Origin: Eledone cirrhosa
Taxonomy: Eukaryota
DNA: 64,000 nucleotides
Assembly: GCA_964016885.1 (NCBI GenBank)
Contig: OZ024742.1
Coordinates: 73,532,001-73,596,000, forward strand
Direction: 5' to 3'
Both the position numbers and the translations under genes were made by a program. Positions 1,180 to 32,811 of this stretch are shown in pieces. The notes beneath the pieces are model-generated. The model did not search any database. It was not told the origin of the DNA and worked only from the letters and a program-made list of their open reading frames with translations. Position 1 is the stretch's first letter; each line of letters begins with the position of its first letter.

Positions 1180-1472
1180 AGTATTGAAGTTTCCGTTGAA
1201 AATTGAAAAAGTCATAGGAGTGAAGAGTGCTCTATGTAAGTACCAGAGCTAAATTTAATGTATAATAAATAATACAATATAATTACCTCATTACCAGAGG
1301 TTTCCCGAATAAGGCGAATACGAAAAACATCCTCATTCGTTCATCGGACAAGGCAATTTCCTTGAAAATTGCCTTGTCCGATGAACGAATGATGACGTTT
1401 TTCGTATTCGTCTTATTCGGGAAACCTTTGGTAATGAGGTAATTATATTGTATTGTTTATTGTACATTAAAT
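1180..1472. mobile_element. Penelope-pLTR-like fragment forming a ~220-bp fold-back with hammerhead-like motif on both arms
   Basis: 1253-1472 is a near-perfect inverted repeat centred at ~1362 and flanked by (TA)n. Each arm reads CCGAUGA-A-stemII-G-GAAA-CCUY..GAGG-UA. Confidence 0.6.
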
Positions 1473-3041
1473 ATATATATATCTGGTAAACACACTGGAT
1501 GATGTGGTCCTATATTTGCCATTATGATAGAACTCTTATGAGATGCAACTTCATAAGAGGCTGTTAAAACTTGTCCAGATTTGTATGCCATAAGAACAAC
1601 TTAACCCATTAAGGGAGTATTTACATGGATTCCCCACCCTATCTGCTAGAAATAGCAGTCAAATTACTGGCATCAAACTGGTATCTTTGAGATGGACATG
1701 GCTAGAATGACCTGCATCACACAACACCAGTTTCATCATCAACAAAACAAAAAACTATAAAGGTGATGTGACTGGTTGAGTGTGACTTGCTTTTATAGTA
1801 GCTAGTATAACTTACTGGTATGCTAACTAGTGGAGTGGAGTATGACTTGCCTGTATGGTAAGTAGCTGAGTGTGTAGTAACAGGTGTGGAATGTGACTGA
1901 ATTATGTATTGACTGCCATAGAGTAATGTGTTAACTAATGTGGCTGTGACCTAAGTATTCAGTCTTGTGTATGTTTGTGTGCCTGCAGTGTGTGTTTGTG
2001 TGCCCACAGTGTGACTATAATGTTAACTCATGTGGCCGTGACCTAGCTGTTCAAAGTCATGTGTGTGAGTGTGGTACAGTGTGTCTGTGTGTGTGTGTGT
2101 GAATGTGGTACTCACGTTATCTAATGTGGAGGGTGACTGGGAAGGTTGTAATAGTTGCACTGATGTTTGGAGGTAATCATGAGAATAATGTATATACACA
2201 AATCTAGTGTATGTGGCAACATTGTGCTTGGGTGGTTTGGATATGTAGACCTTTGTGATATAGGGATGGTCTAGAGAATGTAGGGTTTGTTGAATATATA
2301 ATCCCTGTTGGTGTAACTTCACAGATTGAGGTCTATGATGTTAACCCATAATAAAAGTGGTCTATGTAATGTTACCCTGTAGTAATTAACCCACAGTCTG
2401 TGTTGTTAACACAGTGTAGGTTTATGTGATGTTACACTTTAGTGTGGGTCTGTGTGATGGATTTTACCCCTATTCTATGATGTAACACCATAATGTAGTT
2501 CTGTGTGATGTTACCCTATTGTGTAGGTTTGTGATACAATCCTTGGGTATATGACCATGTGATGTAACACCAGGATGTGTATTTGTAATGTAACCCACGG
2601 TTGTGAGTCTGTGTTGTTACTCCAAATTGTGGGTCATTTTGTGTGATATTACGCTGTGATGTAGATTTCTTTGATGTTACTCCATAGTGTAATCTGTGTG
2701 ATGTAACTCCAGAGCTACACAGATATATGTGACATATATGGTTGATGATTTGTTTTGAATTGCTCTGGATCTACCGTGGTATTTCTGTTGTATGTCTGGG
2801 TTGTTACTTGGACCTAGGTGAGCCCTGATCGAACACGCAAGATCAAAAGCATTCCAGTTGTGACTAACTAATTTTTTATGTGAATGTAGTACTACATTCA
2901 TTATCTAACAATATTAGTCTGTAGTGTGTTGTGACTAACTAACACGTGTCTCCTCTCTATCCTTTTCCCCCGTTTTCCTTTTTACTCTAGCTTGTCTTCC
3001 TTTCCTTCTCTCGCTCAGATTTCCTCCCTTCTCTTTTTCTA

Positions 3042-3077
3042 TCTTCCAATGAAGGATTAGCATCTGAAACGTTAAGA
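3042..3077 (+). ncRNA. Decayed minimal hammerhead ribozyme motif (Penelope type)
   Basis: tctt-CCAAUGA-a-ggat(tagc)atct-GAA-ACGU-U-aaga. Stem I tctt/aaga and palindromic ACGU are present, but the core has two substitutions. Homologous to 53161-53196. Confidence 0.55.
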
Positions 3078-3706
3078 CTATTTTTCAACTGTATCAAACA
3101 CTAAACTCATATGCCATAATTTTGTTTTTCACTGCTAACTTTTCATGCACAAAAAACAGGCACACACGTGTTTTTGTGTGAATGGTAGTGTCTGGAGTGT
3201 ACATGTGTATACCACTGTTGTGTCTACATCAACACGTTCCCAAGCTGTTCTCTTGTTGTAATATATATATATATATATATATATACATACTGGCACTTCG
3301 TCGGTCACGACGAGTGCTCCAGTTGTTTTGATCAACAAAACAACTTTCTTGTTCGCCACTTATTACTGAGATGGTTTTGGGGGAAGAGTCCTCAAACACT
3401 CCTTCCAGCAGGTCCTATCAGAAGCAACCGTCTCCAACTGATCCGGCTGTATCCCAGAACAACTTGCAAGTGGCTGAGCATTCCACTGGCGCGTGTAACC
3501 ATAACGTAGTTTTCAGGAAGATTTAGAATTTATAGGTACAACTAATTTTTGCTAGCTGAGTGTGTTTGTGACCCGTTAGCTATTACCTCCATTTATTTCA
3601 TTTATGAAATAGGGGTTCCAGCTAGACACTTTTGTATTTACCCCATCACATTTCCACTCTTACTATGTCACTGTCTCTTCTCCCACCATCTGTATCATGT
3701 ATATAT

Positions 3707-3747
<41 letters not shown>

Positions 3748-5446
3748 CCTTATCGAGCCCTCTTCTGATTTTAGCCTTCACATTTATTATTATTACTATA
3801 TATATAAAATTTAATATAGAAATGACTTCTACAGGACTAGAACTGGTTCATTCAAGGAAAGAAGCAAATGGACAAATGACAAAATGATAGTCTTAACGAC
3901 TATTTACAAATAAGTCACAAGGGACAGTAACAAATGAACAAAAGACATGACGATAGTCCTAACGACTATTTACACACACACACACGTATATATATGTATA
4001 TATGTATACACACTCGCACCAGTTTGTTTAAGTTTGCTGTTAAACGTCCTAATTTGTTATATTTTTTCATTCATTTACTCTTATGCCTTCCCCTCTCTCT
4101 ATTTGTCTTTATTTCTTTAGTTCATCCCCTCTCTTCCTCTGTGTATCTACTCCTCAATCAACCTCTTTTATTTCCACCTCAATCTCTCTCCCTTTCTACC
4201 TTTGTCTCACTCTCTCTCCCCTACTGTATACCATCCTATTGTTCAACAAACGGTATACTAATTTTTTGTAAATCATTCATTAAATATTATCAAATAACCA
4301 ACAACATACCCCAATAATTAACGGTCAGAAAATAACCCATCCCTCTCGTCTCTATAATCCCCTGCATCCAACAATTATTAATAAAAACTCCCCTCTCAAT
4401 GTAACTCCAACAAAGCTTTCTTCGTTGCTATCTTTCAACCTCTGACCTCTTTTCTTTGTATCCGTTTTCTTGGACCCTTCCCACCCCCACCACTGGCCTA
4501 TGTTTTCCGCCGCAAAACTCCATTAAATACGATTTACTACTAACTCCTTGATGTGACCATTTTCTCCTGTTTATTATATCTATCATCTTTCTATCTCTTC
4601 ACATATCCCGCCATATTTCACCTTTCTTTCCTTCTAAATTTTCTATTACTTTATTATACCCACCGTGCTTTCGTTGTTTCTGCTAGAAATAATTGCCAGA
4701 TTATCCTCAAAATTACATTAAAATGGACGGTACAATGTAGTCCTAGATCGTATAAAAGAACGGGACTGTCATGGCCGGAACTCATTTGATCATAAGCCTG
4801 TCTGTTCGACCAGAGTAGTTGATCACAGGCAAACAATAACAGTTTCAGACTTTTCCCTGCTATTTCTATTATTTTCTCCTCTCCATCTTGCACCACCCGT
4901 TTACTGTATATTTTTCTGCACATGTTTATTGGTGAGGATCTATGTGGTCTAGACTCCATTAAATACAATGTGTGTGTGTATGTGTATTTAGTTTTAGATT
5001 ATGCTTATCAAACACGTTCTCTGTGTTAATACGTATTGTGTGTATAAATAAAATATATCCAGTGTATAATAACACTTAAAGATTATTGTATGTTATATCC
5101 ATGGTGTTCTTATTGTGTAATATAGTAAAGAGGATTTGTATATTCATTATTAAAACGATTGTTATATAGGTGGATGGATGTTATTTGTATCTACATGAAA
5201 AAGTATATTGTCTCTTACACAAGATGTTAGTATCTTATATATACACTGTTTATTTATTAGTGTATTTTAACAATTGTACACAGTTGCTTATTACATATTG
5301 AATCAATAGATGATCTTATTGGTGTGTAATGTACCACCATATACTCATCATCATTTTACGTGCGCTTTTCCCTGCTTGCAAGGGTGCAAGGGTGGGACAC
5401 TATATATATTATATATGGACATACAGGTGTGTGTGTATATATATAT

Positions 5447-5636
5447 AACGAAAGAGTTGTGGTAAGGAACCAGATGGACCATAGCGCACCAGAGTACTCA
5501 ATACTTAAAGTAGTAGAGTGGGTAATAGGAAAATATGTAAGACCTCGACGGCAGAGCTCAAGCTGTTTCGACGGCTATTTCAGTCGAGAAATAGCCGTCG
5601 AAACGGCTTGAGCTCTGCCGTCGGGGTCTTACATAT
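5447..5636. mobile_element. Hammerhead-family element, fold-back copy (family A)
   Basis: Leader aacgaaagagttgtggtaaggaaccagatggacc... then an inverted repeat at 5533-5636 carrying tagccgtc-GAAA-cggc..gccg-UC-gggg. Homologous to 8409-8627 and 32621-32811. Confidence 0.75.
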
Positions 5637-7013
5637 GTGTGTATGTATTTTTATTGTCATTTATGCGGCCATTCTCGGTACCGACCTTGATTTAGTCGAT
5701 AATATCAACCTAGTGTTTATTTTATCGATCTCTGTTTTGGCCGACCTACCTGAAAGTATAGATGACACCCAAGGTGCCGCACAGTAAGATTGAACCCAGA
5801 ATTACATGGTTGTGAAGCGAACCTTTTAACCACACAATCATGCCTACACATACACACATATATTATTGAGATTACTCTGTGTTGCTACTCTAAGTTTCAC
5901 GGGTTGCCATTCGTATTTAATTTATGTGTGTGTATATATATATAGCTATTATGTATAGTTATATATATGTAGCCATCTATCTATATGTATACACACAAAA
6001 GGCGGAGAATGGGGAGAGTTGTTAAGACGTCGGATAGAATGCTCTACGGTATTCGTCACACCTCATTGCACGCTCTGAGTTCAAATCTCGCCGGGGTAAA
6101 CTTTGCCTTTCATCCTTTCGAGGTGGATAAAAAAAGTTCAATCCAGTACTGGGGTCAATTCTTTCTCTATAAAAAAAAATCCGTTGTTGTTCTGACCTGG
6201 AGAGGGTTGGGCTCCACCAGGTTTGAAAATGCTCTAGACACGCCGTATGAAGGTGCCTCTACGACTCCACAAGGAGTTATGGGATCTTTATCCTTATAAA
6301 TACATGTTTGTGTGTGCGTGTATATAATATATATAGATATGTCTACATGTATGTATTTTGTTACATACAGTTATACAGTCCTTATTATATTGTTATAGCT
6401 ACATATACTCACTATACGATTTTTATCCCATTAGATATTTGTACAATATCTACCATGTGTCTATAAATTATATATACAATGAAACAATTCACAACTTCAC
6501 ACAATAGTATAACGGTGAGGTAATTAATGTTTTAAAACACTCTCCCTCACTAAACACTACTTTAATTTAATTTGGAGTGTGTTGGCCATGGGTTTTTCTT
6601 TTTATAATTAGTGGGAGGAAAATCCACAAAACAGACATCTGTCTTATGTAGAATTGTGTCTCATTTGTATGAATTCATTATATATATAGCTGGTGCATAT
6701 ATTAAATAATAAAGCTTATATTTCTCTACTTGTAAATAAGTAAAATACGTGGAATAAAATGTGACGTTATGTTTATGAAACGTTTTAAAGGACACCGTGT
6801 TTATGGTGTGATTGAAATATTTTATTTTAGCTTTGCAGCATCCTGTATACCATAGTTTAAACTTCAACACATACACGTGTGACTATAATAGAATAGATAT
6901 AAATATTTTTGATTTCTAATTTCTAAAGCAACGTTCGCCTCCTTACCATGTCTTGGGACATGTCGGTTACTTCGATACCTTTACTCATTTCTCCATTTTT
7001 TCTTTCTTTCCAG

Positions 7014-7098
7014 CGTATTTTGGGATTTATACTGTGCAGCACCAGAAAGGAGAGATACGTGTGATCATTCTAGTGAGGCTAAAGCTTTTCACGACTAT
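7014..7098 (+). CDS. Ssdp: Internal coding exon of Ssdp / SSBP2-3-4 family gene (C-terminal part of LUFS domain)
   Basis: Polypyrimidine acceptor ttttttctttctttcCAG (AG 7012-7013) and donor GTAAGT at 7099. After one split-codon base the frame reads [28 protein letters not shown], which I recognise as near-identical to the SSBP2/3/4 motif (C)[13 protein letters not shown](D/E)[14 protein letters not shown]. Absent from the ORF track because it has no start codon. Confidence 0.95.
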
Positions 7099-7271
7099 GT
7101 AAGTATGAGGAACTACTTCTCTTTCTCTCAACACACCACCATAAAAGTTGGTAGAGGCGACGATGGGGGTAACATCCTCCTCCTGCTCCTTCTTCCTTTA
7201 TGTTGCGGCCATTTTAGTGTGATGGCGCCTCTTCATCATCCAGCACAATAAAACTAACCAACATCTTACTG

Positions 7272-7319
<48 letters not shown>

Positions 7320-8234
7320 TGTTTGTGCGTGTGTATATATAATGTGAGAATATCAAAGGCAGAAAATAACAAACAACAGTCGATCGCTATAATGGCTTAG
7401 AAAATCGGGTAAAATACTCCTGGAGAAGGGGGAAAATGGCTTATGGCTGCTACGGAGAATCGAACTCCGTATCTCTTGAATACAATGTCATAATATAATT
7501 TACATACACACATATATATACGTATATAGATACATATATGAGTGTGTCTATATATGATTTTGTTTAAATAAAGATATGTGTAGATATAATGCATATACAT
7601 ATATGGCGAGTCAGGTTTTGTCGTTAATATTACTCTATTTACCAGTGCTAATTCTTATGGGAAAGGTACAAAATATGAACACACTTAATTTTATTTTTTT
7701 AGTATAGTTATAGTCATGATGGTTTTAATGTTCTAAGCAACTACAATGTATTTTTTAGTGTGTATGTATGTTTATCCACACACACATACTGCTGTTGATG
7801 TAGAGTGGTATAGTATGGTGCAGTCATTAGCCAAGCTATTATTATCCATCCAGCCACTACTCACCATCATCATTAAGTCTACATGTGTGTGTGTGTCACT
7901 CTCAATAGGGACACACTAACTAAAGCTGCACTAATCAGAGACTGACTAACCACGAGGACATTAGTACTTGGTATCTAAAATTAAAGAAAAATACAACTGT
8001 TCAGTTCACTGATGAACAGTTAGTTTAGTTTTAGAAAGAAAGCTTAGTAAATTATAGATTGACTCCATCTTAGATATATACAGACAGGGTGACAGAAGAT
8101 ACATCCACTCACTAAAATAGTCAGGCACATACATAATCATAAACACACGGAAATATATATATATATTCATATAGGTATGCATGTACACACATACACAATC
8201 ATAATCATAAACACATAGAAATATATATATATAT

Positions 8235-8368
8235 ATATATATAACATAATATAGAAATGGCTTCTACAGACTAAAACTTTCATTCGAAGGAAATCATCAG
8301 GAAAGCCCATTTATACTCTATGTATTGAGTACCTTACTACTGTGGTTACCCCCGAATGAACCCAGGAT

Positions 8369-8370
<2 letters not shown>
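8235..8370. mobile_element. Hammerhead-like/tail inverted fragment (family B)
   Basis: Minus strand cCUGAUGA-tttccttcgaat-GAAA-gttttaGUC-tgtagaagccatttctat joined to an oppositely oriented tail gtattgagtaccttactactgtggttaccc. Homologous pieces at ~3815-3865 and 29265-29360. Confidence 0.5.
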
Positions 8371-8407
<37 letters not shown>

Positions 8408-8419
8408 GGAACCAGTAAG

Positions 8420-8513
8420 ACCCCGACAGCTGAGCTCAAGCCGTTTCGACGGCTAATTCTGGACTAAATGAAAATTTATCCTGGTATTTAAATAGCCGAT
8501 CTTCTCAAGGGGT
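8420..8513 (-). ncRNA. Complete type I hammerhead ribozyme candidate, U3-A8 core variant
   Basis: Minus strand: acccc-UUGAGAA-ga(u)cggcua..long loop..uagccguc-GAAA-cggcu(ugagcuc)agcug-UC-ggggu. All three stems pair; GUC cleavage triplet at 8427-8425. Confidence 0.7.
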
Positions 8514-8768
8514 AATTCCATATATGGTCAAAGTGATTGTCAAAAATCAGTAGTAATTCTGTGGTTGCAAATTAGTAGGTTTTGGTGCGTTATGGTCCAC
8601 CTGGTTCCTTACCACATTTCCTTCGTTATATATATATATATATATATATATATTCATTTAGACACACAGAGACAGGTACACACACACATGTATGTAATGT
8701 TATATCCTGTGAAATTTTTAATCCATTACAGTGCTTTATCACGAAACTCTAGGTGTTTGAGTCATGTA

Positions 8769-8815
<47 letters not shown>

Positions 8816-9244
8816 CATATATAGGTAGTCATCTATGAAGACAAGTAGACACAACAATGCAGACAATCATACACATTCAGTCATCTACAACTATTTATAC
8901 ATACTCAAATACACTGACAACAATTTTCTTTTTATTTATCATATAGTCTGTATTGTTTCCATGTCTATAGCTTTCTAGTTAGTTTTATTGCTATTGTTTT
9001 TACATATTCTACACATAAGTGTTCTAAACATCTGACAAACTAAACTAAATTTGTAGATGACAAAGTACCTTGTCCTGTTCTTTGATTTCTGAGTTCAAAT
9101 CTTTCTGTTCTCTGTGGTCTACTTTGATGCAAAACATCTGGTTTCACCTTGTTCTTTGGTGCCTTTAATGGAGACCACCCTGTTGCAAGCATTCCAATCA
9201 GCTCTTTGGTTTGGGGATACTTCCCTCTCTGCTGCTTAACAATA

Positions 9245-9600
9245 TATCATCATCATCATTTAACGTCCAATTTCCACGCTAGCATGGGTTAGACAAGCTG
9301 TCCCATTGTGACACAAGCCATGTTTTATTCACACAGAATTGATTTTGGCTTTGTTTCTACAGCTGGATGCCCTTCCTAATGCCAACCACATTTACAGTGT
9401 ATTGGGTGCTTTTTGTTGTGACATCTACATGACCACTTTACAGTGTGGACTGAGAGCTTTTTGTTGTGATACTTACGCAACCACTTTACAGTGTGGACGG
9501 TGCTTTTTGTCATGAAACCTATACAACCACTTTATAGTGTGAACTGGGCACACGTCATGGCACCAAGATGACTACTATAATGTGGATTGGGGACTTGGTC
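9245..9600 (-). mobile_element. SINE/LINE-tail copy with tandem ~45-bp subrepeats
   Basis: (CAT)n + ttaacgtccaatttccacgctagcatgggtt and ggatgcccttcctaatgccaaccac match the RTE 3' tail; accactttacagtgtggac units follow in tandem. Confidence 0.7.
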
Positions 9601-12600
9601 TATCATGAAATATATTGGCTACTAAGTCCATTGTGGCCTTAGTTGGTCTGTTGTTGAAGGTGCTGTGGTCAGATGTGGTTTTAGCTGGTTTGTTATTGAT
9701 GTTTAGTCTCAGGTCAGTCCTAATCTAGCAAACCTATAATAAAAACTGTTCCAGCCATGAACATTCTGCCATTTCTTTTGCAGACATACTAAATTAAGGT
9801 CTACCTTATCCAATGTCTCATTCCTTTTCTAAAAACATATGGTGGAATTTGACTGATTTACTAGTTCAAGCAAGTTAAGCAACCATACAGAGGTGGACAT
9901 GCTTTGACGCTGTAAGTTGGTTGTTTTCAATGACCAGACAGTTGGCCTGTTGTAGTGGTCAAGACATGTGGGCACTGTATGGTTGGTGGTCAGGACATAT
10001 ATCTGGAGTATAGTTGCCATATGGCATAGTGTGATGTGGTCATGTGCTTTTTATGTCTCATTGTGGAGGTAAAATACAGTATCAAAATTATCAACTGAAA
10101 ATTTGCCAGTTAAAATGAGTTGTTGCAAATTTATTATGTTGTAGGACATTATTCCACGTCTTGTTTCATCAAGCTGTGTGGGAGTTAAATAAATACCATA
10201 TGATTTTAGTCATTGAGTGTAAATATTCTTCCTCATCTGCTTGATGCCATGAAACCAGTTAAACACTGGATCATAGAGAGTTCTCAGCAATTAAGACATA
10301 TTATTAATATATTTCTTGTGATTTCATGTCAACTATATACTTGTGTGTTACTAGATACCATATAGGCAAATTAGCAGTCATTTTTCCTCTGCTAATTTAC
10401 AGTCCTGCCGAGGTCAACTTTGCCTTTCATTCATTCTTTCAATAGAATATAGTACCATTCTAGCAGTGGAATAGTGGAATTGCTATTTGTGTTCTAAGCT
10501 CAAATCCCATTGTGACTTAATCCATTGCTCAGTTTAACATTACCACCAGGCCCTTGGATGCTTTTACTGGGGCCCACTCTATTGTTAGCATTTGGGTGAA
10601 GGCTCTGGTTTGAAGATACCTCCCTCTCTCCCTCCTTGATAGTCCTGAAAAGGGCCATAGACACTATCCTTATCTCCCTGACTAAACAAAATAAAAAATT
10701 GTAGTGATTTTGTCTACCTATGGTACTAGTTAAATTTTCCTGTGCACTAAACAGCTACTCTTCCCTGAAATCTTGTAGATATTGCATCTATAAAGTCACC
10801 AGTCCAACTGCAGTGGTTACTGATATAGAGATTTTAAGTAGACTTTATGACAAATCAAAAACATATAAGTTTCTCTATGATTTGTCAGTAAAATTCTTAT
10901 CTAAATTTACATTTGTCATACATACACAGCTAATATCGTGTTAGCTTGAGCCCACTATTTAACTTCTAGAGATTGAGATTTTTAGATAATTAGATTATAG
11001 ATATTCTATCGTCTTTGTAAAGCAGTTTTAGCAGTTAGGTCACATCCTCTCTTGTGGTTTTTGTAAGGATACATTTCTGTATTTCAGTCTAGGTTCAGTT
11101 TCAGGCTTTATTGTTTCTCAAACTATTTAATTTAGGCAAACAACAAACTGTTCATTACTTATTTTTTATTTTCATTTTTGTTAGAGTGAATGGAAAAACA
11201 GATTGTCAAATATTAATATTTACTGATATTTTTTGCTGTTTTAATGATAGGGGCACCAGCCATTGTTGGTGTCAAAAGGGTTAATATTGACATACTTCAG
11301 CCTTGAACAACATTCATCTATAAAATCATTTGCTTCAACAAAGTTTTAGTTATGGAACAGTGGATAGAAAAGTTAAATTTTACTGTATTGTCTTCAATTT
11401 ACAATTTGAAGGAAACGGGTTATTTATTTTTTTGTTAGTGGTTGTTATTTAGTAGTTCTGTAATTACTTTGGTTAGTTTACAGTTAACATTTCATGCAAT
11501 CATCATCAATTTTATGTCTCCTTTCCATTCTAGCATGGGTTGGATGGGTTGTCAGTATCTCATATATTCTCACACAGTTAAAAAAAACTGTTTTTCCTTC
11601 TCAACTCCGACTTCCACCAATTCACAGACAATATGGAGTGAGAAAAAGCAGTTAAACAAAAGAAAGGCTTGAATGGGGAAGGTGTGTGATTTAGTGGTTA
11701 GAGTTTTTGTCTCATGATCCTAAGGGCATGGATTTGAATCCTGAACCGGGCAGTGCATTGTATTCTTGAGCAAGACATTATTTTATGTTGCTTTTCATGA
11801 TAAAAGTGGGGTCTCCTATCATTAAAACAACTGAGAACCCTTATGAGATACATCCATGTAGGAGGTCAGCTAAACCTGCATAAGTGAGCTGTAAATTTTA
11901 TTTCATGTTATTTCTCAAGACTTGGGGAGCTTAATTGCTTGGAATTTGATATAAGTGAATTGAAAGAATATATTAAGTATATTTTGACACTGGCAATACC
12001 ACTTTACACAATGTAATAGGTACATTTTATCGTGGCACCAGCACTAACCACTTTATAGAATGTACTAGGTACATTTTTTCGTGCCACAAGAACTATTACT
12101 TTATAATGTACTGCATGCATTTTTGCATGTCACCAGCACTTGCCATTTTACAGTGTGTACAGGGTACACTTTATTGTAGCACCAGCACTACCACTTAACA
12201 GAGTGTACTGAGTGTATATTATTGTAATATCAGTATCAGAGAAGTGAACAAGTCCTTGACAGGGCCAAAGTGTTCTTGTGAAATCTGAAATAACTGTTAG
12301 ATTATGGGGTTTCACCTGTGTGGAATTATGTGATAAGGCTGATTGTTGTGCAAAACAGTTTTATAGGTGTATCATACTTGTACTTTCCTTAAATACAGAG
12401 CATGTCATGGTTTAACTATGGGAGATTGGTCTCCCTGATGGACACAATTACATGCCATTAATGTGTATGTGTATATAAGCAGGGGTTTCACTTCAGGGTG
12501 GTGGATTGGCAGAATTGTTAGTGTTGGACTAAACACCTTATTTAAATCATGCTGTGCCTTATTTGCTTGCTAGACTTAACCCATTACCATATTTTTCATG

Positions 12601-12792
12601 AAAGACTCTATGATTTTCAAATAATTTATAAAATAATCAAGCATTTGAAAGGATTTAGTCACATAGCTTTCTCATTATTATTTGGACCATAATTAAAAAT
12701 GTTTTTCTTACATAAAATTATGCAGGAAGATTTAAATTTAAATACATACACTTTAAAATAAAGTTTTGTATCATAAAACCTAGGGCTCTTTC

Positions 12793-13500: not shown

Positions 13501-13779
13501 GGAAACAATGTAGAAGCAGCATTCATTAATAGGATAGTGGGTGGCAGAATTAGTGAAATGGAAACCATTATTAGGGTAGCAGAATTGGTAGAATAGAAAC
13601 CATTATTAGGAAAGCGGATGGTAGAATTGGTGGAGCATTGGGAAAGTGTTGTAATATTTAGTTAGTCTTTGTCCTTCATTTTTCTGAGGGTTTGTAGAAT
13701 AAATACCAGTCAAATCCTAAGGGTTAATTATTTAGATTACAACCTTCCTTAATGGTTGGCATGTTTCATTATTATTATT

Positions 13780-15389: not shown

Positions 15390-15419
15390 TAGTATTAATG
15401 GCCTTCCAAATGATAGTCA

Positions 15420-21074: not shown

Positions 21075-21540
21075 GGGTGCATGCTGACAGTTGGCCAATG
21101 CACTTTGGTTACATTTACTGGAGTGCAACATTTTCCTCTCTACCTTCACCTTGCTTTGCAAGTGGAACTGGGAAGAGTCAATGAAGAATTGAATGAAGAA
21201 CTTCACTCCTTTCAGTTGCATCCACCATACATCCTCTTTTGTGATAGAGTGGGGAAACTTCATGGTCATTAGCTGGATTTGTTGTACACCTTGCAACAGC
21301 TGTTTTACAAAACTACCATGAGTCACAATTGTATGCACTCATTCATTCTCCAAGCATCTCACACTGGCTCAGTCGATGGTTCTTCCATGTCTAGAGTTCA
21401 TTTCAAACCAGCAATACCTCCCCCCTCCATCCCAATAACACTGCAATATCAGGAATTTCTGGAAGTTTTTCCTGAGAACATTGTTGTTCTTCACCACAAG
21501 TAGTCGTCCTCAGTAGAAGTTAACTCTTTTGGTGCCAACT
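21075..21540 (-). mobile_element. Degenerate Tc1-like transposase fragment
   Basis: Frame-broken minus-strand peptides FFIDSSQFHLQSKVKVERK and PKCI..TV.H resemble the Tc1 pattern W..VLFSDESKF...P.C...TVKH. Confidence 0.45.
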
Positions 21541-24500
21541 TATGTGTAAGTGCCCCCTGATACTACTCTTTTACCTGTTCCAGCCATCCGGCTGAGGCCA
21601 TGCTGGGGCACCATGATACAAAGCTGTATTTTTTTTAATTCAAACCTTCTATCATAAGTTTATGTAAGAAATTTTTGTTGTGTTTCAATACCAGCACAGC
21701 CATGAAAAAGTTATATTACAAAATCCCTCTAAATTCTTGATTACTTTCAAAATTAATAGAAAATTACCTGGCAGTGTGTTAGATTAGAAATCTGGTCATG
21801 AATTGGTTAATGTGTAAGTTTTACTAGCCTCATTGCTTGACTGTTGTTGTGAGTGGCTGACATTCCAGATATCAAGTACTTAGTGTTGGACTGCATTTCT
21901 GTCTAAGAGATCAGCTGTAGGAAAACATCCATGACAAAGGGTAACCATATCTGCTTACTCACCTTCAGGAAGTTTATCTTCAGTACACTACAGTGGTTGG
22001 TGGCAGAACAGATATCCAGCCATAAAAAGAATCATAGAGACTCTGTGAGACCTGTCCAAATCATGCCAGATTTAAAAAATCTATGTATGATCTGCTTTAG
22101 TAATAGGTAATTCTTAATTATGATTTTTTTTTTCTTTCCAAAAATCAATAGTCACCCTACTTATTGCAAATATTTGGTTCAGAGGGATGTCAACCTTTTA
22201 CATTTATAAACATCATTTTCATAAAACTAATTAAATGTTATAGAGTTAATTATAAAAGTTCACATCTTACAGGGTTAGTCATCACATTTTTATTCTTAAT
22301 CTCACCACATATTTCTCATATTTCCATTAAGTGTCCCTTTGTGACCCCTATATTTTGTGTATGTACTTACCCTGTCCATATGTCTATTGTTGACTGACCT
22401 ATTTCTCTTGTGTCCAAGTATTTTTGCGGGTGGTAATGGTCATGAGGACTCATCTACACCTAGTTTTTTGTGTTAGTTGGGGACAATGTAGGTAAAAAAA
22501 AAAAAAAAAGAACTATAGCAGGGAGCAGTAGGATTTGTTAAAAATAATTTTTCGAAATATTTATTGTAATTATTAAATTATTAGTTTTTGTAGAAACTTT
22601 AATTGTAAATAAATCATATCTGTTAATCTTAAGAAATAATAACCTGATTATTTTCTGGTTTAATAAAGTTTTTAAAAAATCTGCTGAATGAATTCCTACA
22701 AAATATAAATATTTAAAAAAAAAAACTTTTTCTTTCTATATTTCAGTCACAGTTGAGTGACTGCATCAGTTAATAATCAACACCAACAGCCTAATATGAA
22801 TTCCAAAATTTTAACATTTTTTTTTCATTAAACATTGTTAATGATCTTAGCTAGGCATGAATATCATAACTCCCACATCACATATGTTAAAAATTTCAAA
22901 CTTCACTTTTACATGACAAAATATTGTTTCATTAAGTTAGGGGTTTAGCTAGGCTTATTGCTGTTTCATCTTTACATATTAACTAATTGATTGTCCTGAT
23001 CAGAATCCAGTCACAGTTATTCATCCTAATATGTGCCCCCTTAAACCCCAAACATTCCTTATCTCCCTCTCCAACCCACTTTCCCCTATGCATGTGTGTG
23101 TTTCTTCAGCAGACAAATATTTGTGAGATATCACATATATAGCAAGATAGCTTGGCTCCAACCTACACTATTGACTAGGTAGATAATTCTTATTTTTGTT
23201 GGGTAAAATGGCAAGCTGCTTCTATTGTGGTATGTGAAGGATGAGTCAAATAAAATCAATAGCAGGGAGGCTGGTAAATGGCATGAATCCATGTGGAGAG
23301 AAAGCAGGAGGGAGCTTAAGTATGAGTATGGATGAGGTGGTGTTGGTGATGGGGGGGGGGGGGGCTCGCCTGACGTCATTTTTGCTGCTGCTGTTGTTGT
23401 TGTTTTTCAATGTAAAACCTCTCTTGTCTTTCTTTCCATTCTCTACTTTTTTAAAATAATAATTTTGCTGCTTAAGGAATTTTCAGAGGTTGTATATGTG
23501 GAGAGGGGAGAAGGGTAAAACTACCCTTATTTTTTTTTTACCTCTCTTTTAAATCCACTTTGGTTGTACTGCTTCAACTATGGGTATTATTACTGCTTCT
23601 ACTACTACTAGATCTTCCAACACCACCACTACTACTACTAGATCTAATAAAACAATGACTGCTATTGAAAGCAGCAGTGATAATAGTTTTTCTCTGTGCC
23701 TCCTCCTACACTATCTCAGCTATTTTCAGACAACTCTTTCTCTATTGATTTTCTCATATCAGTTAAGGTCTCCCCTACCTCTCTCTCAACTGTTTAACCC
23801 TCCTCTTCCTCACAACTTGTCTTATCTGGCTTGGATCTTTATTTACTCATCTACCCCACAGAGGCCCCTTTCATTAACCTGAGAGGGGCTGCTCAGCAGG
23901 GGTTGGGTGTGACATATCAACAGTATTAAACATTGTTTTAAATAAAGTTTTATCATTTATTTTAAAAATAATTGTTCAACTTAAACCTCATTAATTATAC
24001 ACTTGTATTCCCCTCCACCACATGAATGGCCCTATTCAAAACATTAGAATTCACATCTCCATGGCATACAAACTTATTCATATTTGCAAATTTTATTCAG
24101 ATTGACACTAGATGCACTGATCACTAGGTTCCTCTGACTGTTTTTTTTCTTCCTTATTTTATTATTATATATCTTGTTTGCTGGTCACTTTCAGATCCAG
24201 TATTGATTTTGTTTCCTTTCCTTACTGATTACTGATAGATTATCCAAAAACTTTTTTGGTGTCAAATAGTTCACTAGGATTTTGGAGTTTAACCTTAAGT
24301 AAAATAGTCTTTCAGTGTTTCCACAGGCTGGCTTGTGATGTTACCATCGGCCACTACATACACACATTCATGCATATACACACACATAAATACAGACATA
24401 TTTTGGAATTTTGGACTAGTTTTATATAGAACAAAATTGATATTTCTAGGTTGGGATTTCAATTGTTGCCTGTGGACAAAATCTCACAATATATTGTGTA

Positions 24501-25015
24501 ATGCTTCTGCCCTTCCTCTCATTTTTATACAATTTTGTCGAACATGTCTCCAATTATACACTGAAAGTTTTATACATGAAGTTGGCTTCAGTTGTACAGA
24601 GGTATATATAAAATGCTAGCTGTAAATGTTTGAGCAGTAGTTCTTAGCTGTTTTTTTTTTTTGCTTCATGCCACATTATCACATATCAAAAAAATTGGTT
24701 CATACCCCCACCTCAATGTAAGAACATGTTTAGTGTTAAAAGATATAATGTAAAATTTAGAAAAATTCCTCAAAAATATTCAAATTGCCCCTTTATGAGC
24801 TGTGTGTCCCACATTTACAATCAGTGTTAGAGAGATTCAATTTGGCATTAGGGTATGGCACCTCAGCAATATTGAATATTCACAGAACTTCAAGATATTC
24901 TTTTATTCCATACAACAAAATCAAATATAGTTAAATCTGTTTTAATCAACTGAAAGTGAATATTGTATGTGTAGTTAGTGAGTCAGTTGTTCTGAGTTAG
25001 AATAGCTGAGTGTTC

Positions 25016-25118
25016 TAAGGTACGATAGAACTAGTGAGTCACTATTTTAAGGTACGATAGAACTAGTGAGTCACTATTTTAAGGTACGATGAACTAGTGA
25101 GTCACTGTTTTAAGGTAC
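25016..25118 (+). repeat. Three tandem copies of a ~32-bp unit containing TGAGTCA
   Basis: taaggtacgatagaactagtgagtcactattt x3. Confidence 0.9.
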
Positions 25119-25733
25119 CAATAGAACTGCCAGTGATCCAAAGTAGTAAAAATATTTTGGTAAATGTAGTTTCAAAACCTGATAAAAGAGTAGAACTTAG
25201 ACTGGGAAGATTGCAAGAATTATTCTATATGATAAACAGGAATGATTAACAAAATTATATTTATAAAATATTTTTGTTGTTTTTTGTTTCCCCTATGTAA
25301 ATTTTCTATTGAAGTCATGATTTTACAGTATACCTACTTGGTTGTTGTTGTTTAACCCTAGGTCTGTCTTGATCCAACGAATCTGATCGGGTGTTCCAGT
25401 TATGGCCTGTTCAGACATTATGTATTTAGGACTGTTATGTTATGTATACTATAGTAGTTAGAATTAGTAAATATAGTTGTTGTTTAGACCCAGGTCTGCC
25501 TGGATCTAATTCATTCATTATCAAATGTGCTTCAGCTACAACCATTCTATCTTTTATTTCAGACATTGTATATAGGACTAGATTATCTAATGCACAATAT
25601 AGTAGTTAGTACTAGTGACTATAGGTGTTTAATTCCAGATAAGTGTGCAGTTTGGGGACAATTTGCTTTCTGTATCTGGCAGGCCAAGTAATCACAACAC
25701 AGCTCTCATTGCTTTGACCATTTTCTTGTTTAA

Positions 25734-25947
25734 TCCTTTAGCATTTACATTAATCTATATATCATATTGTATTTTCACGGTAAAGGCTTTACCTCTTAAT
25801 TATCTTGCATAATATTGAATCTATGAGATTTTGATATTGTTTATTTTGAGAACAATACCGTAACATTAGTATCAGCAACTGGTTACAGCTGATTTGAAAG
25901 AGGTGAGATAATTCTGGCCTGATATGGCCAGTTTAAATGCTAAAGGG
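25734..25947. mobile_element. piggyBac-like MITE
   Basis: TTAA|tcctttagcattta ... taaatgctaaaggg|TTAA: terminal inverted repeats with TTAA on both sides. Confidence 0.7.
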
Positions 25948-26839
25948 TTAAACCAATCCTTTGTGACCACCCTCTTTTGATCACCATTTGATTATGACCA
26001 CTCATTTGGTGTGACCGCTCCTTTGTAACAACCCTTTGTTGTGACCACTCCCTTGTGACTATTCCCATCTAACTACTTTCCTTGTGATCAATCTAGTTGT
26101 GACCACCACTGATATATTGAATTGATTGAAACTGTCTATAACAATATTAATTAACCTATATAACAATGTTAATGATCACAATTGGGTAATGTGAAGGACA
26201 TCTTTAAAAACTTCCCATTAACATTGAAACAAGTTTGATAGATTTATAGAGATATAGTATTGTGGAATATATCTACCTTGATTTGAAGTCTCGCTGACCT
26301 CATATTAAGTAGGTTAACAACACCAGTCAGGTACCACTTGATTTATATATTGATCTTCTAGAAAGCATCTCAACTACCCATTGATTTTCTGTTTACCATT
26401 GACATTGTATCATGATAATTTGGATGATGTTGAATGTGTGTGTATCATCATATTTCTAATGCAATACATTCTATTTCAATTAATTAATGAAGTTTAAGGG
26501 ATTTACTTAAATTATCATTTCATTACTCAGATAGTAACTTAACATATGTTTTTTATACATTAAATATGTCAGAAGATTTAAAATCTAAATAGGAATCCTT
26601 TTAAATGGGTGTTTTCGATTCATAGAACCAGAGTCGGTTTTGATCATGCTGGTATCAAAGCAAGTGGCATCGATTTTCCCGTGCTGGCATGGATTAGATG
26701 GATCATCATGGACCACATCAATAGATAACATGGGTTTCGTAATTCAAATGTTTATGTGTGACAGCTCACACCTATGCAGGTTTAGCTGGCCTCCTCCAAG
26801 GTATATCTCGTTGGAGGTGTCTTGAGTGATTTAATGATA

Positions 26840-27003
26840 TGGGCCCCAGTCCTATCATCTCATGTCCACAGCTGAGTAAACTGGAGCAACGTGAAATAAA
26901 GTGTCTTGCTCAAGGAAACAACACATCACCCGGTCCGAGAATTGAACTCACAACCTTTCAATTGCAAGCCCAATGCTCTAACCAGTAAGCCATGTGCCTT
27001 CAC
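26840..27003 (-). mobile_element. tRNA-derived SINE with CORE-like segment
   Basis: Minus strand ggcacatggcttactggttagagc..gagttcaattctc..ccttgagcaagacac. Relatives at ~11680-11900, 43040-43230, 5760-5845 and 53300-53460. Confidence 0.7.
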
Positions 27004-27511
27004 TCAAATGTTTGCAGTAGACTAAAGACTTAAAATTTAAATGTGATGCAATTATAGTGCTGTTTTGTACTCAATGTTAAGATTTAATTGTAGTTTCTGT
27101 CATCTCACGTTTTGGTTTTGGCATGTGTCACTACAGCTGGATCCCCTGTCTAATGCCAACCACATTATGGAGTGTGCAGAGTGCATTTCCACATAGCACC
27201 AGAACTAAGGAGGTTGTCATGTTTTTGACACAGCTGGGTGTCCTTTCTATTAACAACCACTTTACAGAGTGTACTACTGGGTGCGTTTTATCATGTCCAC
27301 ACCAACACTAGAGAGGTTATGTCCTTGACACAACTGACGAGCCCTTAGATCCCCTTTTGGAATGATTTCTGCGGCTGGATGCTCTTCCTATCACCAACCA
27401 CTTTACAGAGTATACTGGACACATTTTTCATGGCATATATCATCATCATCATCGTTAAGAAAAACGATGAAGTTTCATTTACATGTATTTAGTTATTTTT
27501 TTATTGTTTAC

Positions 27512-27553
27512 TGACCTGTTACGCACATTTCGCAGAGGACTGCCTCAAGGTCA
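27512..27553 (-). ncRNA. Decayed hammerhead-like motif
   Basis: tgacct..tgag-gcag(tcct)ctgc-GAAA-tgtgcg-UA-acaggtca; the CUGA part of the core is missing. Confidence 0.35.
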
Positions 27554-27631
27554 TCTATAGGGGTTATGGACCTGACTCCATTATCGATCTGTTCTTCAGA
27601 TCCACACACAGACACATCGGCAGGATTTAAA

Positions 27632-27678
<47 letters not shown>

Positions 27679-27691
27679 TCATATATTTAAA

Positions 27692-27729
<38 letters not shown>

Positions 27730-28934
27730 GTGTGTGTATGTGTGTGAACTAAGCAAATGATGTGAATTTTCTTATTCCCACATTTGCACGTTGGCATGTA
27801 CCATGAATCTGGTAAAAATGATTCTCCTTAATTTTTTTGACACAATATTTAATATTGATGTCACTGAATCTTCCAGAAAGAACATTGCCTTTGTAGTTTC
27901 CCTTTTCACTTGTTTCTACAACTCTTTCAATGAACTTTGCTTTAATCTTTATTCATTAACATATTTCTACTTATCATTTGCAAATAATTTTGAAAGTAGT
28001 CATGAAGGAAAAATTTAGTAAATTTCTCATTCATTATTAAGCTGGTATTTAAAAAAAAAAAAAAAATTATACAAAATTATGATGGAAGGCTTTTAGGTAA
28101 ACACTTTAAAAGTTTTGTAACATAGAACCAAGGACTTTTTCATATGGTTTGGTTATGAAAGGATTAGTACATCTGAAGATATGATACTGAATCCATTGTA
28201 TATAATGATGATAACAATGATGATTTTTTAAATTCACATAAGACTGTACTCAATAGATCATGATATCTAGCATGAGCAGTCAGTGTTAAAGAGGAGCTTC
28301 CACACATAGAAACCATGCCAAAAATTTGGACAAAGAAGACATGGTTCCCCGGCCTGTCTAGGAGGGCAGTAGCTCCAAATACGACCGGCTTTGAATGGTA
28401 ACAATCTACAACTCATACCAGCATGTTGGTATGAGTTGTAGATTGTTACCATCATTTTTACATCCACGATTTTAAAATGATGATGTATCTAACAATAATA
28501 AAATATCTATAACTGTTTCATGAATGAAAAACAGATGGTTTGGAATAGTGTGGTGTATCTGAAAGTTTCTTAATCATGTATTATCAACCCATGCTAGCAG
28601 AAAGAAGGTGGGGACATTTTCTGGATGCTGGTATGGGCCAAGTGAAATTTACATCTCAATCAAGAGGTTCCAGTTTCAATTCCACATTGTGGCATATAGG
28701 GCGTTCTTAAGTCAATCCAAGCCATGTGAGTAAAACAGGTAAATATAAACTGTTTGGTGTCTAATCGAGTGGCTTGTACCTGTAATTCAAAGGGGGACAA
28801 CCTTATCACAGTGTAATGTTGAGTTTGCATGCGGGAACAAGTTATTTACTGTAAAATGTAATGCGAAGGTTCTCCATTGATGAAATAACTGAAATATTTT
28901 GTAGCAAAACAATAGCGATGTAGTGTACCATTAT

Positions 28935-29122
28935 TGTTGGATTGGCAGTATCGGTAGAGGGTCGGACGCCATGCTTTGACGCATAGAGTTACGGCCCTTG
29001 CCATTCTGAGTTCAAATCCCGCCGATGTTAACTTTGCCTTTCATCCTTACGGGTTCATAAAATAAAGTACCAGTAATGCACTGGGTAATTGCTGGCTTTG
29101 TGCCAAAAGTAGAAACAATTAT
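28935..29122 (+). mobile_element. tRNA-derived SINE (same family as 13.8-14.5 kb)
   Basis: Full head-to-tail match with B-box gagttcaaatcc. Confidence 0.9.
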
Positions 29123-29175
29123 TATATATATATGTGTTTGTGTAATATACATACACATATGCAAGCATGCACACG

Positions 29176-29255
<80 letters not shown>

Positions 29256-30353
29256 GTATATGTGAGTCCCTGGTTCAAACGTGGGTAACCACAGTAAGGT
29301 GCTCAATACATTAGTAGAGTGTAAACATCAAATTTTATATAGAAATGGCTCCTACAGGGCGCACGCACACGCACTGCGTGTTAGGTGTGTAACTACAGTT
29401 GTAGGCGGCGCGCTGTTCGAATCACTCAATGTTGTTACTGTGTGTGCTTCACTGGCTATTGTGCGGGGTGGAAGTATAATTGATACTCCTTTAGTTGACC
29501 CTCCCAGAAGTATTTAAGATAAAATCAGCTGTGTTGGGTTTCGAACTATCAACACTGAACTAACTAGTAATCCGCTATTCTATTGTTATAGGCTATCTAC
29601 ACCACACCATGGCAGTTAGTCTTATTAGAAGCTTAAATTAGATGACCTTTTACTAAATACTGTAATGTATATAAATCCGTTGTGCGCCCCCCCCCCCCCC
29701 CTCCCGCTTGCTAGAGAATGTTCACTTCATATTATATGTACCCTCCTCATACCCAATAATTTGACCCTCTCACATGTTAATTAGCAATGCAAATGATGGC
29801 TTTGATTGGCCAGTTTTTATTATTTAGGTCAGTTTAAAAAATATATATATATATTTTTTATTAACAATGGGTTGAAGGAAAGTACCTCTGTTAAACCTAA
29901 CACCGACAGTACTTACGTAGACACTCAAGCATAATTTTATAACTTTTCTTTCCACTCCCTTTGTTTAAAACTTTTACATACACACGCACGCGCGCCTGTA
30001 TTTGTTTTCTTTTTTCGTCATCTGTCGTTGGACTGCGGATATTCTGGGGCACATCGTAGATTTTATCCACTCCAGATATTTTGTCTGCTACATATTCCTC
30101 CTACACTTATTTTTTGGTTACGTTGAGCCGAGTTACATAAACTACATATATATGTAATGTACATGTGTATTTGTGTGTGTGTATATATATATATATATAC
30201 ATATACATACACACACACCCACACCCATCCATACTATGATACGTATATGTGCTGCATGTATGTATGTGGTTTGTTTCAGCCACCAGTTCTAAAGTAAGGC
30301 TGGAACACCGAGTGTGTTGTGCGTGTATATTTATGTATATATGAATATATACG

Positions 30354-30395
<42 letters not shown>

Positions 30396-30559
30396 CTCTG
30401 TGTGTGTGTGTGTCCGTATGTGGTTGATGGCTGAGAGACAGGAGTACTCAATACCGAATTAGAGTTTTAATATTCATTATTATTAAGGCTAAAAAGCGAG
30501 TCTTGTTACTCTGGAGATATAGATATAGATGCATACACACACATCTGTATAGATATAAA

Positions 30560-30740
30560 TAATTGTTTCTACTTTAGGCACAAGGCCAGCAATTACTCAG
30601 TTCATTACTGGTACTTTATTTTATCGACCCCGTAAGGATGAAAGGCAAAGTCAACCTCGGCGGGACTTGAACTCAGATCGTAAAGGGACGTAACTATGCT
30701 GGAAAGCATGGCGTCCGACCCTCTACCGATACTGCCAAAT
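30560..30740 (-). mobile_element. tRNA-derived SINE (same family)
   Basis: Reverse complement of the family consensus; nearly identical to 63335-63520. Confidence 0.9.
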
Positions 30741-31649
30741 AAATAATGTAAACATATATATATATATATATAAAATTCAATCAGAAGAGTTCTGTTAGTG
30801 TAACACTATGCACAGTTGTTGGAGTTGCTTGTTTATATCGGGTTTGGATTGATATGGAATGAAGTGTAGTGGGTTGTTGTACAGGAAGTGGGTGTGGTGG
30901 CGGTGGTGTAGTAATGGTGTTGTTGTTGTTGTGGTGGTGGTGGTGGTGGTGATGGTGCAGTAGTGGTAGCGTTGTGGTGGTGTAGTAGTGGTAGCAGTGT
31001 TGTTGATAGAGGCAGTAGTGGTGATGGTAAAGATATAGAGAGAGGAAGAACAGGATGAAGGTGGGGTGGTGGATAGTTGGTGACTGGTTGAGCAGCCTCT
31101 AGTCAGCTGAAAAGATTGCTAGCTTGCTACCTAGTCAGCAAGCTAACAATAGCTCCTGATCTCTTCTTGCTGGCAATTATTTTTAGCTGGGCACACACTC
31201 ACACACACATTTATATACATGTAATATTTCAATCTCTCTTTCTCCTACAAACACATACACACACACACGTACATATATATTGGATATACAAAATGAAGGC
31301 AAGCATACACAATATATGTAGTAGATTTTATTTATTAGTTAAAAACTGGTGATTCACTTTGTGTGACCCTTTATGTGACAAAAAGTCAATTGTGTATGTG
31401 AGAATGGCTTCATTATGGTGTGTGAATTACAAAGTGAAAAATATTCAAGAAGCCTTAGAGTAGAAATAATATTTATCAGAGCTGAGTGTGTTGCTACTCA
31501 GAGTTTAGAGAGTAATTAGGCTCTATTTACAAGAGAGGGCTCAATATAATAAAGGATATCTGACCTTAGATAAAGCCACTGGTCATTGTCATACACTGGA
31601 TCTTCCAAGCCCCACATGATGTTTGCGTGTATGTATGCACACATGTATC

Positions 31650-32370
31650 ATCAAGTTTTCGGAACTAGTGCAGCTCATTGTTGGGGTGCAACTCTTGATA
31701 CATTTACAGTCAGCACCCTCTACTGACCTTTATCCTCCGTCATTCACAAGGAGTTGCAGTGTTGTGATCTGTCCACTTCTTGGTGTTGTTTAGACCATGA
31801 TTTTCTTTGTCTGTCTCTTTATCCTCCTTCAACTATGCTCTGGAGAATAGTTTTGGATAGGGAGTTGCGGCAGAATATGTGGCCGTATCAGACAAGCTCC
31901 AATTATTTGACCGGTGGAATGGCAGTATCGGTAGAGGGTTGGACGTCATGCTTTGCAGCAAAGAGTTATGGCCCTTTATGGTCTGAGTTCAAATCCCACC
32001 GAGGTTAACTTTGCCTTTCATCCTTACGGGGTTGATAAAATAAAGCACCAGTAATACACTGGGATAATTGCTGGCCTTGTTGCAAATGTAGAAACAATTA
32101 TTTGACTCTGTTTTTATAGTGGTTCCTGCATATTTACTGTCTTGCTGTTTGACAAAACTGTCTTGTGCTGTGTATGGGATGCATAGCAACTTTCCGAAAC
32201 ACTTGTGCCTGGCTTCTATGTTCGATGTCGTAAAAGAAAGATCTAAAGTCATGAATGACTTGTACAGTTTGAGATTTGTTGGTAAACTGATGGAGTAGTT
32301 TTTCCATATGATGTTCAGCTTCCTTATAGCAGCAAAGTCCAGGCTGTCTTGTCAATATTTTCTTAAGTGA
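31650..32370 (-). mobile_element. Old RTE-type 3' fragment interrupted by a plus-strand SINE (31910-32102)
   Basis: Peptide EARHKCFGKLLCIPYTAQDSFVKQQ..AG resembles FE..C.RK.L.I.Y; decayed downstream RTE C-terminal sequence lies at 31650-31900. Confidence 0.55.
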
Positions 32371-32620
32371 GCTGCCTTCCTTGTGTATGTTAGGTGGCTA
32401 GCGATAGGAAGGGCATCCATCTGTAGAAACCATGCCAACAAAGGGACGAGAGGACTCTTCAGTTGTGTTAAGGGCATGATAACCTCACTGTGTTGGTGAC
32501 ACAATAAAACACAGCCAATATACTCAGTAAAGTTGGTGATAAAAAGGGCATCCGGCCTATATATATATATATGCATATATGCACACACACACACGTGTGT
32601 GTGGGTATATATATATATAT

Positions 32621-32811
32621 AACAAAGGAATTGTGGTAAGGAACCAGATGGGCCATAACGCACCAGAGTACTCAATACTTAGGGTAGTAGAGTGGGAAAA
32701 AGTATGACCCCGACGGCAGAGCTCAAGCCGTTTCGACTACTATTTCTGGAAATAGTCCAGAAATAGCCGCCGAAATGGTTTGAGCTCTGCCGTCGGGATC
32801 ATACTTTTTCC
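32621..32811. mobile_element. Hammerhead-family element, fold-back copy (family A)
   Basis: Same leader as 5447; inverted repeat 32695-32811; flanked by (TA)n. Confidence 0.75.

Follow-up and report, generated by a model that had tools for sequence, protein, structure and literature searches.

Within a 64,000-nucleotide stretch of the Eledone cirrhosa genome (assembly GCA_964016885.1, contig OZ024742.1, positions 73,532,001 to 73,596,000 of the forward strand; hereafter the window), five short loci, at 1180-1472, 5447-5636, 8235-8370, 8409-8627 and 32621-32811, each consist of two oppositely oriented pieces of one element that face outward. We interpret them as short two-armed insertions of Penelope-like elements (PLEs) of the Hydra type, and consider it likely that they arose by dual priming of reverse transcription at a cut within (TA)n, followed by run-off at the capped 5' end of the RNA template. 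An earlier note, made from the sequence of the window alone, had attributed them to a non-coding, ribozyme-processed mobile RNA system mobilised by a PLE; the PLE origin, TA targeting, high abundance and hammerhead ancestry that it proposed are upheld, and the non-coding and ribozyme-processed character is not.

The outward-facing arrangement was recovered at all five loci, which belong to three sequence families, the minimum that the note had counted: family C at 1180-1472, family B at 5447, 8409 and 32621, and family A at 8235 (Table 1). The tail motif that it had reported for families A and B and near 30443, GTATTGAGTAC, has exact copies at 5494, 8322, 30444 and 32668 and single-mismatch copies at 29299 and 28246, giving six matches in the window at no more than one mismatch against 2.1 expected. 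Outer ends adjoin (TA)n or (CA)n, as had been described, except for the right end of 5447-5636, which lies in a GT/AT-mixed tract. The description of all loci as hammerhead-bearing stands for part of them: complete type I hammerheads are confined to both arms of 1180-1472 and to 8409-8627, the hammerhead at 8235 is decayed while its sister copies are intact, and 5447 and 32621 carry the 3' half only, the 5' core box being absent. A descriptor that allowed published core variants gave three hits in the window, against zero to two in each of 20 shuffled windows; an Rfam scan of the window found no hammerhead at E<=1.

Long hairpins are found at 1180, 5447 and 32621 only, so that the hairpins of the earlier note hold, as DNA structures, for three of the five loci; at 8235 and 8409 the arms do not overlap, and the longest stack is 8-12 bp. 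In the three palindromes the arms differ from each other at 6/104, 2/48 and 6/51 sites (4-12% diverged), which indicates aged genomic copies rather than fold-back assembly artefacts. The 14 mismatches in these hairpins are mixed, with no ADAR-type A>G polarity between arms. When locus 8409-8627 is aligned to the young family B unit described below, one strand matches positions 3279-3450 at 99.4% and the opposite strand positions 3485-3531 at 100%. Loci 5447 and 32621 align at 83-91% identity and represent an older subfamily.

Families A, B and C are the pseudo-long terminal repeats (pLTRs) of protein-coding PLEs with a reverse transcriptase (RT) and a GIY-YIG endonuclease (EN). The 3.0-Gb genome was searched with pieces of the loci, and the matching loci (L numbers) were read. 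The sequence 5' of the 8409 hammerhead led to a copy (L035) that is continuous with a GIY-YIG open reading frame (ORF), and a family B tandem array defined a 3,531-bp unit with a 747-aa open frame. A 121-nt UTR query returned four matches, since the search skips common words. Long copies of the older family B subfamily (L218, L220) carry an 83-88% identical ORF. Family C continues into an untranslated region (UTR) and RT plus EN ORFs in L150-L153, with periods of 3,614 and 3,662 bp. For family A, the outer end of the arm called S2 below reads directly into the N-terminus of a Hydra ORF in L202, with a similar read-through in L265. The check that the earlier note had proposed, for copies joined to an RT and GIY-YIG ORF, thus came out positive for B and C, and for A up to the RT N-terminus. 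Further traits of EN-bearing (EN+) PLEs are present: the repeats occur as pLTRs in tandem arrangement (the 3,531-bp head-to-tail units of B and the periods of C), 15 of the 16 two-armed ORF-bearing insertions show an inverted, 5'-truncated copy and, at one of the two ends, a tail (of 70-78 nt, against the published 30-40), and a three-way hammerhead fold is predicted in the pLTR. In L374 and L375, the ORFs that lie 2.4-2.7 kb upstream of family A have no UTR in common with it and are mere neighbours. In L362 and L363 an inverted ORF adjoins a family A arm whose far end was not found, and these loci were left out of the proof.

The placement of the families within the Hydra clade is suggested by protein motifs, with no Pfam model matching the family B or C proteins. 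The family B protein has RWR at 67, DKT at 147, CNCPDRSIC at 602, CNLCSEE at 700 and CKH at 728, and lacks CCHH in its GIY-YIG core, with a single cysteine between the YQ and YIG motifs; the family C protein has RWK, DKT and CSCRVKSEC. As published, the Hydra clade has an RWK-type motif, DKT, a CxCx5C linker, no CCHH, CxxC/CxH around E and N, and (TA)n targets (PMC8557442), and its octopus family Hydra-1_Obim is listed in the supplement with a (TA)n preference and a similar hammerhead. The present families share with this clade (Craig et al. 2021, PMC8557442) RW[K/R], DKT, CxCx5C, the absence of CCHH, CxxC..E..N..CxH, the pLTR hammerhead and (TA)n. Their units of 3.5-3.7 kb (3.53 kb in family B) exceed the "generally <3 kb" of the clade, a descriptive rather than diagnostic trait, and family B has clear tandem pLTRs, unlike Hydra-1_Obim, which is annotated "no pLTR". 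By eye, family C looks nearer to Hydra-1_Obim than family B does.

The partner that the earlier note had suggested was a PLE like the remnant at 45.4-46.8 kb of the window. This remnant is a PLE of another type, with a two-cysteine (CCHH-type) endonuclease; a tblastn comparison with the family B protein gave no hit at E<=1, and the ends of A, B and C have no match in it. Its different endonuclease type and the lack of detectable shared sequence indicate that it is not their partner.

Among the family B copies, all 150 scored endonuclease matches are 100% identical, giving at least 150 identical copies. L070 and L071 (G000:C1:437198587-437213178) contain five head-to-tail 3,531-bp units that are 99.9-100% identical, framed by an inverted arm, and many copies genome-wide have 784-aa open frames. 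From the near-identical tandem units and the many open copies, family B is very young and may be active. Abundance was extrapolated from 55 random 10-kb regions (L155-L209; 549,600 bases), in which 17 family B and 14 family A clusters correspond to about 9x10^4 (range 5-15x10^4) and about 8x10^4 clusters per genome, respectively. Nine of these 55 regions hold pieces of Hydra-like PLE ORFs with 32-55% identity to the family B protein, indicating a diverse and abundant Hydra-like clade in this genome.

The outer ends of the arms follow a simple rule. On the 3,531-bp unit of family B, whose coordinates are used throughout, arms end at unit 3453 (S1) or unit 3531 (S2), in each case at an AT or TAT that matches the target. 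The two sites are 70-78 nt apart, an interval that corresponds to the published one-sided PLE "tail" (PMC8557442), and families A and C show the same two sites at a distance of about 70-75 nt. Among 20 young ORF-bearing family B insertions, 16 are two-armed, 15 of these with one S1 and one S2 end, and four are one-armed. An unselected set of 62 clusters (88 arms), drawn from the random regions and from bystanders, contains 25 two-armed outward insertions: 21 are S1+S2, four have one end at neither site, and none is S1+S1 or S2+S2. A third set, sampled by pattern and taken in position order, comprises 52 distinct hits, of which 39 are two-armed, nine one-armed and four ran off the locus; 34 of the 39 are S1+S2, with two S1+S1 and three others. 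All 17 head-to-head pairs are S1+S2, and no counted set contains an S2+S2 insertion. In the sampled copies for which inversion breakpoints and flanks were tabulated, as the earlier note had advised, 66 of 77 S1 or S2 ends of family B pass into at least three TA repeats, the (TA)n insertion preference of Hydra elements. The S2 ends of family A run into CA in 46 of 87 cases and into TA in 30 of 87. Independent sequencing runs show loose ends into (TA)n at both S1 and S2.

Short arms have their inner ends 25-31 nt downstream of a TATA-like box, and an extra G is frequent there. In family B, 58 of the 88 unselected arms have inner ends at unit 3389-3403. A step lies at A3393/G3394, 29 nt below the TATA-like box TATTTAAA and on an initiator-like hexamer, TTAGTC, for which one subfamily has TCAGTC. 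Three subfamilies of family A stop at a purine 29-31 nt below TATAAAT. Genome-wide exact family A matches that reach this predicted start (+1) carry a non-natural base at -1 in 234 cases and the natural C in 48. Of 30 checked in each class, 27 natural-C matches run on for at least 10 nt and three are due to chance, and 26 non-natural matches are short arms, the other four being long arms with C>T decay. The base at -1 is G in 61 of the first 100 matches listed and in 18 of the 26 short arms read, against a background of 0.20; microhomology with the partner arm accounts for up to eight cases, and G is still found in 10 of the remaining 18 (p=8e-4). In family B, six of the seven adjacent head-to-head pairs among the first 100 listed matches without T at -1 carry G, and the sequence between two complete arms is CG, CAG, CCAG, CAAAAATG, C or C. 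The inner junctions vary among copies, as do the centres, which is expected of separate insertion events and not of a short master element. Some family B inner junctions (L287, L359, L392, L390) contain long runs of A or T, which suggest terminal-transferase activity of the RT, or tailing before joining.

From these end statistics we infer priming on both strands, a transcription start just below the TATA-like box and copying of the cap. The element protein would cut both strands within (TA)n, and one DNA 3' end would prime at S1 and the other at S2 through a 2-3 nt match to AT or TAT, on a template of uncleaved RNA. Because the RT would initiate internally, the sites of the upstream pLTR, just behind the transcription start, would also be usable. 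In family B the cDNAs would then reach the cap and run off it once about 60 and 140 nt had been copied, often copying the cap as well, and end-joining would link the two cDNAs head to head into a palindrome of roughly 200 bp, with microhomology, insertions or trimming at the join. Use of the downstream pLTR instead would yield the long ORF-bearing arms and the tandems. The predicted start of family B falls inside hammerhead loop II, so its stubs would inherit half a ribozyme. Run-off at the cap is suggested by the extra G at -1 together with the precedent of L1, in which an extra G at full-length 5' ends marks cap copying (PMC11702581). A more specific version, towards which we lean only slightly, would assign each strand of the (TA)n break to one RT start site around a conserved tail hairpin, with priming in the 5' pLTR giving a cap run-off resembling a "strong-stop" product.

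Several observations weigh against this proposal. The start and the cap are deduced from DNA, the sole RNA run covering 80 nt of UTR. Two of the 39 pattern-sampled two-armed family B insertions have S1 at both ends. The natural T at -1 is present in 10,278 family B matches against 5,799 without it; the T class is divided about equally between long arms and arms that stop 1-4 nt further on. This spreads the stop over 3389-3393 and would fit a second start at A3389 or added A's. Among 100 listed family B matches, C at -1 is as common as G (48 and 44); this C is partly a subfamily variant and partly derived from the partner arm. Family C, whose inner ends were selected by query, has no clear TATA box, and these ends are scattered over about 15-40 nt. 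Arms that overlap require two RNAs or repeated copying of one. The Hydra assignment, finally, is made by motifs and not by a tree.

An alternative that keeps the PLE origin, and that we regard as unlikely, is that the palindromes form by self-priming (snap-back) of a cDNA or by stalling of the RT at hammerhead helices. Self-priming has been proposed for junction palindromes in rotifer PLEs (PMC3846280), yet it does not account for why a second outer end is fixed at S1, why the arms fail to overlap at 8235 and 8409, why ORF-bearing arms have unrelated inner ends and why both arms carry the extra G. Stalling is in keeping with inner ends near the foot of hammerhead stem I in families A and C and in loop II in family B, but the family B stop is in the loop and not at a helix.

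Somewhat less probable again is a separate non-autonomous, ribozyme-processed short RNA, retrozyme-like or SINE-like (short interspersed element) and possibly circular, that a PLE mobilises in trans. Short copies do far outnumber ORF-bearing ones, with one of 17 random family B clusters extending more than 120 nt into the UTR; retrozymes are thought to derive from PLEs (bioRxiv 10.64898/2026.07.22.740005; PMC7229834), and short RNAs from solo pLTRs or read-through of stubs could act as templates. Against this, the junctions are heterogeneous, the copies read include no short tandem units, and family B stubs lack both the promoter-like box and the 5' hammerhead core while matching the pLTRs of ORF-bearing elements at up to 100%. 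Arms read through the predicted hammerhead cleavage site and do not pile up there, only three of the 88 unselected family B arms ending at 3432-3435; a second check, on a set biased towards arms reaching +1, likewise showed no pile-up. Ribozyme processing, as proposed in the earlier note, is thus not reflected in the arm ends. Nor do the copies resemble non-LTR retrozymes, which are head-to-tail repeats of 150-450 bp with whole hammerheads, as they are head to head and often hold half a ribozyme. Miniature inverted-repeat transposable elements (MITEs) or assembly fold-back artefacts, which about 200-bp palindromic elements in a TA context might suggest, are very improbable: the two ends are different sites (S1 and S2) and not the fixed terminal inverted repeats that the earlier note named as a sign of MITEs, internal sequence is not uniform but has variable centres, the elements are continuous with RT ORFs, the arms are diverged, and the same ends appear in independent runs.

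Much of the insertion structure has precedents. Inverted copies, one-sided tails, (TA)n targeting, opposite-strand hammerhead pairs, the U3-A8 core and TATA/Inr-like motifs in pLTRs (the last in PMC3846280) are already published. Canonical PLE insertions (PMC8557442, PMC3846280, PMC2377424) likewise have an inverted copy, a one-sided tail, variable 5' truncation and tandem arrays; here the tail is 70-78 nt instead of 30-40 bp, most copies are ORF-less stubs with a fixed inner end, and the rule of one S1 and one S2 end is quantified. The Poseidon element PAc of Anolis (Frangieh et al. 2024, PMC11167929) also has two RT start sites bounding the tail; it shows AT-rich cleavage on both strands, uses uncleaved RNA as its main template and is a predicted dimer. 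In vitro, no difference in its start site was seen between strands, unlike in our proposal, and the parts of that paper covered do not describe cap run-off or the formation of inverted arms. L1 twin priming (PMC11702581) resembles our proposal in RT from both DNA ends, microhomology at the inner junction and the extra G, but the second L1 primer lands beside the stop of the first cDNA and the arms barely overlap, whereas here each of the two start sites is fixed and in most cases the overlap of the arms is complete. Metazoan non-LTR retrozymes (PMC7229834; bioRxiv 10.64898/2026.07.22.740005) share the type I hammerhead, PLE ancestry and non-coding short copies; unlike them, the present families form no 150-450-bp head-to-tail arrays, include many copies without a whole ribozyme and are continuous with autonomous ORFs. 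The origin of the inverted and tandem structures of PLEs is described as an open question in PMC8557442 and PMC11167929. A rule of one site per arm and cap run-off were not found for PLEs in the literature searched, whose coverage excludes older subscription papers such as the 2004-2006 Penelope reviews.

These findings have practical implications. Thousands of young stubs record, to the base, the points at which PLE copying begins and ends, and the young intact family B element is a reagent for testing the insertion mechanism. For annotation, roughly 10^5 short palindromes per family are PLE debris and not MITEs, microRNA hairpins or retrozymes. Adenosine-to-inosine (A-to-I) editing is extensive in cephalopods, and in that setting it matters that many stubs would, if transcribed, fold into hairpins of 50-110 bp. 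If the two-ended mechanism is correct, it would alone account for the inverted repeats of PLEs, the one-sided tail and the order of 10^5 stubs per family, and the family B element would permit a reconstitution yielding a (TA)n-targeting RT-endonuclease.

The hammerheads are of type I with an extra nucleotide at the base of stem II and, in family B, a U3-A8 core, like those of other PLEs (Cervera and de la Pena 2014, PMC4209133), where opposite-strand pairs 100-700 bp apart were ascribed to truncated PLEs. They differ in that stems III of families A and B have 3-5 bp and are not minimal, and in that the predicted start of family B splits the ribozyme. The family B core is TTGA-N-AA in 27 of 29 distinct variants, N being any of the four bases, and stem I of family A differs between subfamilies yet stays paired. 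A scrambled-hammerhead reading of family C was rejected, since it folds as a standard type I hammerhead with an 11-bp stem I. At 27480-27600 (-) of the window, a hammerhead-like repeat follows a TA tract; it failed the descriptor and has diverged relatives in L277 and L371.

The shared tail motif is bipartite, RCTCT...GAGYAC (for example at 5480-5515, 1225-1250 and 30440-30470). Its outer pair is A-T in 71/76 copies of family A, 117/119 of B and 3/3 of a fourth family, D, and G-C in 19/21 of C; the entry that precedes Hydra-1_Obim in the supplement of PMC8557442 ends with the G-C form. The motif is a possible clade-wide positioning hairpin, for which minimum-energy folding gave support in family C (z -2.2) and none in families A, B and D.

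Table 1. Arms of the five loci and other PLE-derived features of the window.
Position	Strand	Feature
1180..1362	-	Long arm of family C with S2 as outer end; carries a complete hammerhead of type I (U4C core, stem I of 11 bp), cut predicted at 1292
1363..1472	+	Short arm of family C with S1 as outer end; carries the second complete hammerhead (core 1378-1384), cut predicted at 1433
3810..3854	-	Another fragment of family A
5447..5581	-	Long arm of family B (older subfamily), spanning unit 3531 to 3399; hammerhead 3' half and tail
5582..5636	+	Short arm of family B whose first base is the predicted +1 (unit 3393); hammerhead 3' half only
8243..8308	-	Arm of family A ending at S1, with a decayed hammerhead; an extra G precedes its inner end, which lies at predicted +1
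8309..8369	+	Arm of family A ending at S2; consists of the tail alone and runs into (CA)n
8405..8579	-	Arm of young family B ending at S1 (unit 3453 to 3279, 99% identity), with a complete U3:A8 hammerhead (core 8508-8502), cut predicted at 8425
8581..8627	+	Arm of young family B ending at S2 (unit 3485-3531, 100% identity)
29269..29357	-	Non-inverted family A piece, cleavage-site region through tail
30425..30510	-	Tail of fourth family (D) with the shared tail motif; sister copy L194 two-armed
32621..32750	-	Long arm of family B (older subfamily), spanning unit 3531 to 3395
32753..32814	+	Short arm of family B, spanning unit 3392-3453
45360..46780	+	Remnant of a broken PLE whose GIY-YIG is of the CCHH type; not the partner of A, B or C

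Copies of different families are found nested side by side in the same TA tracts in L003, L010, L096, L101, L132, L187 and L207, and likewise at 8235/8409 of the window. An exon-like segment at 7014-7097 (+) has AG/GT ends, and its translation weakly matches SSDP (PF04503, E=0.051, below the cut-off). On this one match, the window may lie inside an SSBP/SSDP gene, and the hairpins in the intron setting that the earlier note had given them. Positions 1-1150 hold tandem units of about 50 bp that alternate with TA runs and are related to a dispersed repeat of high abundance, and positions 33128-39399 form a 6.3-kb minisatellite with a 24-bp unit in about 259 copies.

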